Of a stretch of DNA of 64,000 bases, positions 20,103-22,635 are shown one piece after another. The translations under genes and the position numbers were made by a program. The notes under the pieces were generated by a model. It was not told the origin of the DNA, searched no databases, and worked only from the letters and a program-made list of their open reading frames with translations. The stretch lies in the NCBI RefSeq assembly GCF_030013205.1, contig NZ_CP122648.1; one strand, written 5' to 3'. This DNA is from Escherichia coli. GTDB lineage: Bacteria > Pseudomonadota > Gammaproteobacteria > Enterobacterales > Enterobacteriaceae. How positions within the stretch are numbered: position 1 is the first letter of the stretch; every line of letters starts with the position of its first letter.

Positions 20103-20148
20103 GATAATCATTGGATGGCACAATCAATTTTCGCTAATGATAACCATT
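20103..20148 (+). promoter_or_regulatory. Fur-box-like sequences at the yddA start
   Basis: GATAATCATT (20103..20112) and TAATGATAACCATT (20135..20148) resemble the Fur consensus GATAATGATAATCATTATC; the second overlaps the ATG. Confidence 0.3.
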
Positions 20149-21275
20149 CCCATTACGTTTTGTATGTTGATAGCAAAGTATCTCTGTCTGCTGAAGCCCT
20201 TTTGGCTGCGTAAGAATAATAAAACTTCAGTGCTGTTAATCATTATTATCCTCGCCATGATCCTTGGCGTTGTTAAAATTCAGGTCTGGTTAAACGACTG
20301 GAATAATGATTTTTTCAATGCGCTAAGCCAGAAAGAAACCGATAAGCTTTGGCAGCTTGTTCTTTGGTTCCCTGCCCTGCTGGGGATCTTTGTATTAATA
20401 TCCGTAAACAAAACATGGTTAATTAAACTACTGACTATTCGCTGGCGCGAATGGTTAACAGATTACTACCTTAATCGCTGGTTTGCAGATAAAAACTACT
20501 ACTTCACGCAAATCTACGGCGAGCATAAAAATACAGATAACCCTGACCAACGTATCGCTGAGGACATTCTCTTGCTGATCAGTAAAACGCTCAGCCTTTC
20601 ATTTGGCTTCATCCAGTCGCTTAGCATGCTGATCACCTTTACCGTTATTCTTTGGCAAAGCGCGGGTACGCTCTCATTCACTGTTGGTGGAACAGAATGG
20701 AATATCCAGGGGTATATGGTCTATACCGTCGTGCTCATTGTGATCGGTGGAACTTTATTTACTCATAAGGTGGGTAAACGTATTCGTCCGCTTAATGTGG
20801 AAAAACAACGTAGCGAAGCGACATTTCGAACTAATCTTGTGCAGCATAATAAGCAGGCTGAACTGATTGCGCTAAGCAATGCTGAGTCTCTACAACGCCA
20901 GGAGTTGAGCGACAATTTTCATACCATTAAAGAGAACTGGCATCGTTTAATGAATCGTCAGCGCTGGCTTGATTACTGGCAGAATATTTATTCGCGCTCG
21001 CTTAGCGTTCTTCCCTACTTTCTGTTATTGCCACAGTTTATTAGCGGACAGATCAATCTGGGCGGACTGATGAAATCGCGCCAGGCATTTATGCTGGTAT
21101 CGAACAATTTAAGCTGGTTTATTTATAAATATGACGAACTTGCTGAACTGGCTGCGGTTATCGATCGTTTGTATGAGTTCCATCAACTCACCGAACAGCG
21201 CCCTACGAATAAGCCTAAAAATTGCCAACATGCGGTACAAGTGGCTGACGCGAGTATTCGGGTAATGACTCCAAC

Positions 21276-21779
21276 TTACTGATAGTGTTTTATGTTCAGA
21301 TAATGCCCGATGACCTTGTCATGCAGCTCCACCGATTTTGAGAACGACAGTGACTTCCGTCCCAGCCTTGCCAGATGTTGTCTCAGATTCAGGTTATGCC
21401 GCTCAATGCGCTGAGTATAACGCTTGCTGATAACGTGCAGCTTTCCCTTCAGGCGTGATTCATACAGCGGCCAGCCATCCGTCATCCATACCACGACCTC
21501 AAAGGCCGACAGCAGGCTCAGAAGACGCTCCAGTGTGGCCAGAGTGCGTTCACCGAAGACGTGCGCCACAACCGTCCTCCGCATCCTGTCATACGCGTAA
21601 AACAGCCAGCGCTGACGTGATTTAGCACCGACGTAGCCCCACTGTTCGTCCATTTCAGCGCAGACAATCACATCACTGCCCGGTTGTATGCGCGAGGTTA
21701 CCGACTGCGGCCTGAGTTTTTTAAGTGGCGGAAAATCGTGTTGAGGCCAACGCCAATAATGCGTGCACTGGCGCGACAT
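21276..21779 (-). CDS. insB: IS1 InsB reading frame (InsAB' transposase made by -1 frameshift)
   Basis: 167-aa ORF overlapping the insA 3' end, typical IS1 organisation. Confidence 0.9.
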
Positions 21780-21973
21780 CCGACGCCATTCATGGCCATA
21801 TCAATGATTTTCTGGTGCGTACCGGGCTGAGAGGCGGCGTAAGTGAACTGTAGTTGCCATGTTTTACGGCAGTGAGAGCAGAGATAGCGCTGATGTCCGG
21901 CGGTGCTTTTGCCGTTACGCACCACCCCGTCAGTAGCTGAACAGGAGGGACAGCTGATAGAAACAGAAGCCAC
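21698..21973 (-). CDS. insA: IS1 InsA (91 aa)
   Basis: Translation [43 protein letters not shown] is the IS1 InsA zinc-finger protein. Confidence 0.9.
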
Positions 21974-22635
21974 TGGAGCACCTCAAAAACACCATCATAC
22001 ACTAAATCAGTAAGTTGGCAGCATCACCAGTATTCGTACTCCTGATAATAAGATCATATTAGAGAACCTGAACTTTCATGTTTCGCCAGGCAAATGGCTA
22101 TTACTGAAAGGTTACTCTGGTGCGGGAAAAACCACACTGCTTAAAACATTATCCCACTGCTGGCCGTGGTTCAAAGGTGATATTTCTTCTCCTGCTGACA
22201 GTTGGTATGTGTCACAAACACCGTTAATCAAAACCGGCTTACTGAAAGAGATTATTTGTAAAGCACTTCCCCTGCCCGTAGACGATAAATCGTTGAGCGA
22301 AATACTGCATCAGGTTGGTCTGGGGAAATTGGCTGCGCGTATTCATGACCACGATCGCTGGGGAGATATTCTTTCCAGCGGCGAAAAACAACGTATCGCC
22401 CTGGCACGATTAATTTTACGACGTCCGAAATGGATATTTCTTGACGAAACTACCTCTCATCTTGAGGAACAAGAGGCTATCCGCTTACTGCGTTTAGTGC
22501 GTGAAAAACTACCCACAAGCGGCGTCATTATGGTTACACATCAACCCGGTGTCTGGAACCTGGCTGATGATATTTGTGACATTAGCGCGGTTTTATAAAA
22601 ACAATAAAAGCCCTGCTGTACGGAGATAAAAATAA

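Follow-up and report, generated by a model that had tools for sequence, protein, structure and literature searches.

IS1 insertion at codon 375 of yddA in porcine enterotoxigenic Escherichia coli and its bearing on the yddA-yddB-pqqL operon

Structure of the interrupted yddA locus

The window considered here is a 64-kb stretch of Escherichia coli DNA (contig NZ_CP122648.1), in which yddA, a gene for an ATP-binding cassette (ABC) transporter running from its start codon to its stop codon across 20137–22598 on the plus strand, is interrupted at codon 375 by a copy of the insertion sequence (IS) IS1. The element is 768 bp long and occupies 21261–22028 on the minus strand, antisense to yddA, with its boundaries defined by its inverted repeats and an 8-bp target-site duplication. 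It represents an ordinary, lineage-restricted IS1 knockout of yddA, and it is not new, being already visible in public annotation; in the RefSeq/PGAP annotation of strain K_EC180, yddA stands as a pair of pseudogene pieces with an 'IS1 family transposase' between them.

The terminal inverted repeats of the element are 23 bp long and imperfect, lying at 21261–21283 (the insB end) and 22006–22028 (the insA end), and the left end, GGTAATGACTCCAACTTACTGAT, agrees with the right end read on the other strand, GGTGATGCTGCCAACTTACTGAT, at 18 of the 23 positions. Immediately outside these ends, the duplicated target AGTATTCG is present as a left copy at 21253–21260 and a right copy at 22029–22036. The duplication is exactly 8 bp; a 9-bp duplication was ruled out for this window, since the ninth base fails to match on both sides, and the 8-mer itself occurs only three times on the plus strand of the 64 kb. 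Deletion in silico of IS1 together with one copy of AGTATTCG yields a 1686-nt open reading frame (ORF) of 561 aa without internal stop. The original prediction had described these IS1 ends and direct repeats, the exact restoration of a 561-aa frame upon their removal, and a split between the membrane and ATPase domains; this structural description is correct in every detail.

With respect to the split, the restored YddA carries two Pfam domains, ABC_membrane_2/SbmA_BacA at residues 28–350 and ABC_tran at residues 383–515, with codon 375, the point of the break, in the interval that separates the two. Among solved structures, the closest is that of Mycobacterium tuberculosis Rv1819c (PDB 6tqe), to which residues 36–552 of the restored protein align with E = 2.9e-67, in keeping with ABC transporters of the Rv1819c type that have an SbmA-like membrane domain. 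This alignment continues unbroken past residue 375 and into the segment that immediately precedes the Walker A motif. From general knowledge of the ABC-ATPase fold, we take this segment for the ATPase's N-terminal strand region; the break is therefore placed at the domain junction rather than in a free linker. In contrast to transporters of the Rv1819c type, yddA in the window is divided into two pieces, the ATPase half of which is untranslatable. The 5′ piece (20137–21282, plus strand), found in the ORF list and annotated by PGAP as a pseudogene, consists of 375 native codons, with native DNA reaching to 21260, followed by six IS1-encoded codons (VMTPTY) and a stop. The 3′ piece (22029–22598, plus strand; likewise a PGAP pseudogene) holds codons 376–561 with the ATPase domain.

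A separate ATPase polypeptide that retains its Walker A motif was considered and ruled out. The motif, GAGKTT, begins at 22119, and the reading frame upstream of it is closed by an in-frame TAA at 22011 inside IS1; no ATG, GTG or TTG lies in frame between this TAA and the GTG at 22209, so that the first in-frame start is already past the Walker A motif. As the 3′ piece has no start before Walker A, the ATPase is lost and yddA is a pseudogene. A continuous ORF of about 561 aa with both domains is absent from the window as it stands and is recovered only after removal of the IS in silico.

The element itself has the full organization of IS1. On its minus strand, insA (91 aa, 21698–21973; ORF list and translation) is followed by the insB′ frame (a 167-aa ORF at 21276–21779, for which PGAP annotates a programmed frameshift), and the A6C slippery site, TTAAAAAACTC, at which the −1 frameshift is programmed, lies at 21714–21724, corresponding to IS positions 305–315. 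Joined by this frameshift, insA and insB′ give an InsAB′ transposase, and this 232-aa fusion, as reconstructed, reaches 242.8 bits on the NCBIfam model NF033558, 'IS1 family transposase', whose cut-off is 100. A consensus scan further returned a promoter candidate, CTGCCA-16-TATGAT, at 21994–22021 on the minus strand, facing inward from the insA-proximal inverted repeat, which from established knowledge of IS1 is presumably the insA promoter. Length, inverted repeats, duplication size and nucleotide similarity all agree with membership of IS1, the target duplication of which is given as '8 or 9 bp' (PMC12065110).

The element thus shares with IS1A and IS1B of E. coli K-12 the 768-bp length, the 23-bp imperfect inverted repeats starting with GGT, the insA and insB′ frames with their A6C −1 frameshift, the target duplication of 8 or 9 bp, and a transposase above the NF033558 cut-off. 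It differs from annotated IS1A and IS1B copies, however, at 48–52 of 768 nt (93.2–93.8% identical, or about 6.5% diverged), and this isoform is rare overall: at an identity of at least 99%, it is found in only 150 of 20,395 records, comprising chromosomes and plasmids (about 48–220 kb). The 40 best-scoring records listed all come from pigs and include O139:H1, O141:H4 and UMNF18 strains, and annotated 'IS1 family transposase' elements of pig E. coli include some that match the element at 100% identity.

Recent origin in a porcine lineage

Two queries, the structure as it stands in the window and a version in which the IS was flipped, were searched against 5,426 complete E. coli genomes. The left junction is 100% identical in seven of these genomes, all of which are porcine (K_EC180, ETEC1748, ETEC4067, ETEC4069, ETEC4070, ETEC4071 and ETEC4079); six of them carry the full 2462-bp structure at 100% identity, and the seventh has the left junction and the IS in common with them. 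At the same time, the porcine strain ETEC4068 has an uninterrupted yddA with 0 differences in 1686 positions from the restored gene of the window, bears AGTATTCG once at the empty site, and shows a single difference from the window in the 9.5 kb surrounding yddA.

An assembly artefact, in which collapsed or misjoined repeats place an IS1 copy wrongly into yddA, deserves consideration, inasmuch as IS1 is multicopy here (19–22 places per chromosome) and such repeats commonly cause misassembly. Against this stand the perfect 8-bp duplication and the exact restoration of the frame, the identical left junction in seven separately assembled complete genomes, six of which also share the right junction, and the matching empty site in the sister strain ETEC4068. 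Moreover, the carriers come from South Korea (K_EC180) and from the ETEC series, in which ETEC4069 is recorded from Belgium. The original prediction had named reads spanning an uninterrupted yddA, indicative of an artefact, as the observation that would overturn it; the seven concordant assemblies, the target duplication and the empty site of ETEC4068 instead rule the artefact out, and its probability is practically nil.

The surrounding DNA speaks to the age of the event. The first 25 kb of the window are 100% identical, in a single alignment, to ETEC4067, ETEC4070, ETEC4071 and ETEC4079, and the same 25 kb without the IS are 100% identical to the IS-free strains ETEC4068, ETEC4075 and ETEC1701. 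Since carriers and IS-free strains are identical over 25 kb apart from the IS, the insertion is very recent. In pig E. coli, identical copies of the element are found at numerous sites on chromosomes and plasmids, and IS1 occupies 12 places on the chromosome of the IS-free sister ETEC4068 as compared with 19–22 in the carriers, a difference that fits an ongoing expansion of IS1 in the carrier subclade. From the many sites with identical copies and the copy-number differences between sister strains, we infer that the element is probably transposition-competent.

One of the carriers has been rearranged at this locus. In ETEC4069 (NZ_CP122679.1; 5140–6427 of the locus compared), the left IS1 junction with yddA is kept, but a glutathione S-transferase gene, with ansP and yncE after it, forms the right flank of the IS. 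The near-equal genome size (5,096,203 versus 5,096,799 bp) points to an inversion between two copies of IS1 and not to a deletion.

Recurrent IS1 insertion in yddA

Across the complete genomes, IS1 lies in or beside yddA in 43 genomes with the real structure as the query and in 49 with the IS-flipped query, and the junctions mapped from one representative genome per insertion pattern resolve into at least 20 independent IS1 insertions in yddA. Given as yddA nucleotide with the orientation of the transposase relative to yddA as a sign, these insertions lie at 74−, 74+, 268+, 465−, 547+, 559+, 640+, 703+, 865−, 973+, 1090−, 1090+, 1101−, 1110−, 1110+, 1124− (the window), 1135−, 1158+, 1180+ and 1247+. 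Nearly every mapped case is restored to an intact yddA ORF by removal of the IS, and among the 19 insertions with both flanks available, the duplication is 9 bp in 14 and 8 bp in five. The other natural insertions, such as those of strains 98233, HL15, D53-1, 3359, TO6 and A65EC, resemble that of the window in that a 768-bp IS1 interrupts yddA and is flanked by a duplication of 8 or 9 bp; most of them lie at nt 1090–1180. They differ from it in being independent events at other nucleotides (1090, 1101, 1110, 1135, 1158, 1180 and others), usually of IS1A or IS1B and in both orientations, whereas the insertion at nt 1124 is specific to the pig enterotoxigenic E. coli (ETEC) subclade.

The distribution of these insertions is far from even. 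The interval nt 1083–1180, which is 98 bp or 5.8% of yddA and corresponds to 21219–21260 plus 22037–22092 of the window, contains nine of the 20 insertions (binomial P of about 7e-7 against a uniform model, for an interval that was picked after seeing the data). For the neighbouring gene ydeN, used as a control of the same length and similar guanine-plus-cytosine (GC) content, a search of the same type gave 18 genomes, as opposed to 43 for yddA, with some three to four insertions inside the gene; yddA as a whole gene is only moderately enriched for IS1, and the local cluster is its striking feature. GC content of the hotspot does not differ from that of the insertion-free parts of yddA, the best matches to the IS1 ends within yddA lie elsewhere in the gene, and the integration host factor (IHF) core motif WATCARNNNNTTR is absent from both strands of yddA.

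Selection offers one possible account of this cluster. In a general form, according to which recurrence at the membrane/ATPase junction is driven by selection that favours inactivating or uncoupling the YddA-YddB-PqqL import route, it is considered very unlikely. In a more specific form, junction insertions would be favoured through selected loss or domain fission, either because a stand-alone SbmA-like membrane protein is useful or because a YddA/YddB import route exploited by a toxin or phage is shut off; this is judged very unlikely, although several observations lend it some credit. The membrane domain of YddA belongs to the SbmA_BacA family, and SbmA itself works without an ATPase domain. 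The concentration of nine of the 20 insertions at the junction is explained by none of GC content, IS1-end similarity and IHF motifs, and yddB is also repeatedly interrupted by IS1.

Selection for a membrane-only protein would nevertheless predict insertions spread over the whole ATPase-coding region, nt 1050–1686, in which all 11 insertions actually observed lie at nt 1090–1247, with none of the 20 mapped insertions beyond nt 1250. Furthermore, sites 74, 1090 and 1110 are each occupied in both orientations: the yddA alleles differ at 24 positions between the members of the site-74 pair and at 23 positions between those of the site-1110 pair, and at site 1090 the duplication is 8 bp in one insertion and 9 bp in the other, so that all three pairs are independent events. 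Use of the same position both ways, in different alleles for the two pairs that can be compared, is the signature of target preference. Because of these sites used in both orientations, and of the lack of insertions in the rest of the ATPase-coding region, target preference is better supported than selection for a protein reduced to the membrane domain. A further point against selected loss or domain fission is that, in the window, the ATPase piece is not translatable with its Walker A motif.

Further observations were made on IS1 in this operon. The genomes of GF153 and CP66-6_Sichuan share the right junction at nt 973 of strain D97-1, and yddA nt 943–973 to the left of the IS are missing from both (an adjacent deletion); at this same junction, the transposase is of the IS1A type in GF153 and of the IS1B type in CP66-6_Sichuan, which suggests sequence exchange between IS1 copies. 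Many further genomes carry IS1 inside yddB or in the yddA-yddB spacer, and the operon as a whole is often disrupted by IS1 in natural E. coli. A literature lead that appeared to connect yddA with IS1 (PMC6052338) was set aside, as it concerns an unrelated plasmid gene sharing the name yddA.

Consequences for the yddA-yddB-pqqL operon

The interrupted gene is the first of the yddA-yddB-pqqL operon, which lies between ydeM and gadB, and this order together with the upstream Fur box marks the neighbourhood as that of yddA. Downstream of it, as given by the ORF list, lie yddB (22636–25008, plus strand), an intact gene for a TonB-dependent receptor of 790 aa in the same operon, and pqqL (25065–27848, plus strand), the last operon gene, which encodes a periplasmic M16 protease and is also intact. 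A candidate sigma-70 promoter of the operon, TTGCCA-18-CACAAT with a TG before the second hexamer, was found by consensus scan at 20095–20124 on the plus strand (9/12, a match only). The Fur box GCTAATGATAACCATTCCC at 20133–20151 overlaps the yddA start codon, has four mismatches to the 19-bp Fur consensus, and contains the reverse complement of the Fur box published for yddA of strain CFT073 (PMC3855560). In CFT073, a Fur-regulated promoter drives yddA, yddB and pqqL as one transcript (PMC3855560; PMC6793856); the operon is derepressed in a fur mutant, and there, too, the start codon of yddA is overlapped by the Fur box (PMC3855560). YddB is the E. coli counterpart of FusA, a receptor, and PqqL that of FusC, a protease (PMC5095587; PMC6793856), a correspondence of operon partners that likens the system to Fus-like import. 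YddA, for its part, has been proposed both as a FusD-like importer (PMC5095587) and as a multidrug exporter (PMC9728188).

The YddB protein (WP_063085052.1) is the same in K_EC180, where the IS is present, and in ETEC4068, where it is absent, and the PqqL protein (WP_063085051.1) is likewise the same in IS-carrying and IS-free strains; given that the event is very recent, the intactness of yddB and pqqL says nothing about selection. As for their expression, translation of the yddA message ends at 21282, after which the message would continue as about 750 nt of untranslated antisense-IS1 RNA. On the read-through strand, this RNA includes a C-rich, G-poor stretch at 21483–21682 (C 37 and 34 versus G 25 and 20 per 100 nt). 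Polarity is a classical property of IS1, which Hubner, Iida and Arber are said to have described in 1987 as polar and as containing a terminator. Because the operon is co-transcribed, the untranslated IS1 RNA is long, and IS1 is classically polar, polarity on yddB-pqqL would be the likelier outcome and is plausible.

The original prediction had called the insertion likely polar on yddB-pqqL and had proposed, as the alternative, that IS1 supplies an outward promoter for these genes. In its adaptive version, an IS1 end would provide an outward or hybrid promoter and drive yddB-pqqL independently of Fur, a rewiring that is held to be highly improbable. A precedent is found in a passage of PMC9330008, which attributes to Prentki et al. 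(1986) the finding that an IS1 end and a −10 element in the adjacent DNA can together make up a hybrid promoter; at the outward-facing end of the present element, TTGGCA at 22015, 8 bp from that end, is the sole −35-like hexamer. With spacers of 15–19 bp, however, the −10 candidates after TTGGCA match TATAAT at no more than two of six positions, and the only good −10-like hexamer, GATAAT at 22044, has a 2/6 partner at −35. The consensus scan returned no plus-strand promoter at the IS/yddA junction, and about 600 nt of untranslated yddA 3′ RNA would in any case still precede yddB. The proposed outward promoter is therefore left without support in the sequence, for want of an acceptable −10 and of any scan match at the junction.

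Elsewhere in the window, narZ is a second locus disrupted by a mobile element: its ORF is shortened at the 3′ end (975 aa) and after it come a small ORF and, at 62703–63935, a transposase gene of the IS91 family (the region spanning about 59374–63935), and PGAP marks narZ of K_EC180 as missing its C-terminus. The Rfam family SECIS_3 was matched with 84.3 bits at 51843–51901 on the minus strand, inside fdnG; it accounts for the alpha subunit of formate dehydrogenase-N appearing as two ORFs (49436–51847 and 51896–52483) with the selenocysteine UGA between them, which is ordinary. Frameshifts or internal stops are annotated in K_EC180 for ydeM, a fimbrial usher gene, a carboxymuconolactone decarboxylase gene and fdnH. 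In the window, which is offset by a few bases from K_EC180, ydeM, the usher gene and fdnH are full-length ORFs, and the K_EC180 lesions are probably single-base assembly errors rather than biology.

Taken together, the locus is very probably the result of a recent insertion of a pig-associated IS1 isoform at codon 375 of yddA, which made the gene a pseudogene and likely lowered expression of yddB and pqqL; the event is best taken as a neutral or mildly deleterious by-product of IS1 expansion in this lineage. In the proposed course of events, an active IS1 isoform associated with pig E. coli would have transposed into yddA in one porcine enterotoxigenic subclade and duplicated 8 bp of the target, at a spot that IS1 appears to favour and in the course of its own expansion. 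The remaining 5′ piece would encode only the SbmA-like membrane domain with six IS-derived residues, and the 3′ ATPase piece would be left without a usable start before Walker A. Expression of yddB and pqqL would most likely be lowered by the early stop of translation, combined with Rho-dependent or IS1-internal termination. Two points weigh against this interpretation. A weak promoter-like site directly before yddB, on the plus strand at 22576–22605 (9/12), the only one that the consensus scan returned between the IS and yddB, could keep up some yddB-pqqL transcription; and the repeated insertion of IS1 in the operon could reflect selection for loss, neutrality being an assumption.

For the organism, one of the three components of a Fus-like protein-import operon under Fur control is lost through the insertion, and the other two are probably dampened; in uropathogenic E. 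coli, this operon has a part in systemic fitness. In porcine ETEC, the insertion serves mainly as a clean clonal marker that separates ETEC4067-like from ETEC4068-like strains and an example of the ongoing expansion of IS1. As the carriers and the IS-free strains are otherwise identical around the locus, ETEC4067 and ETEC4068 provide a ready-made, natural near-isogenic pair for IS1 polarity and for the phenotype of the operon, and the hotspot within yddA is of modest interest for the target choice of IS1.

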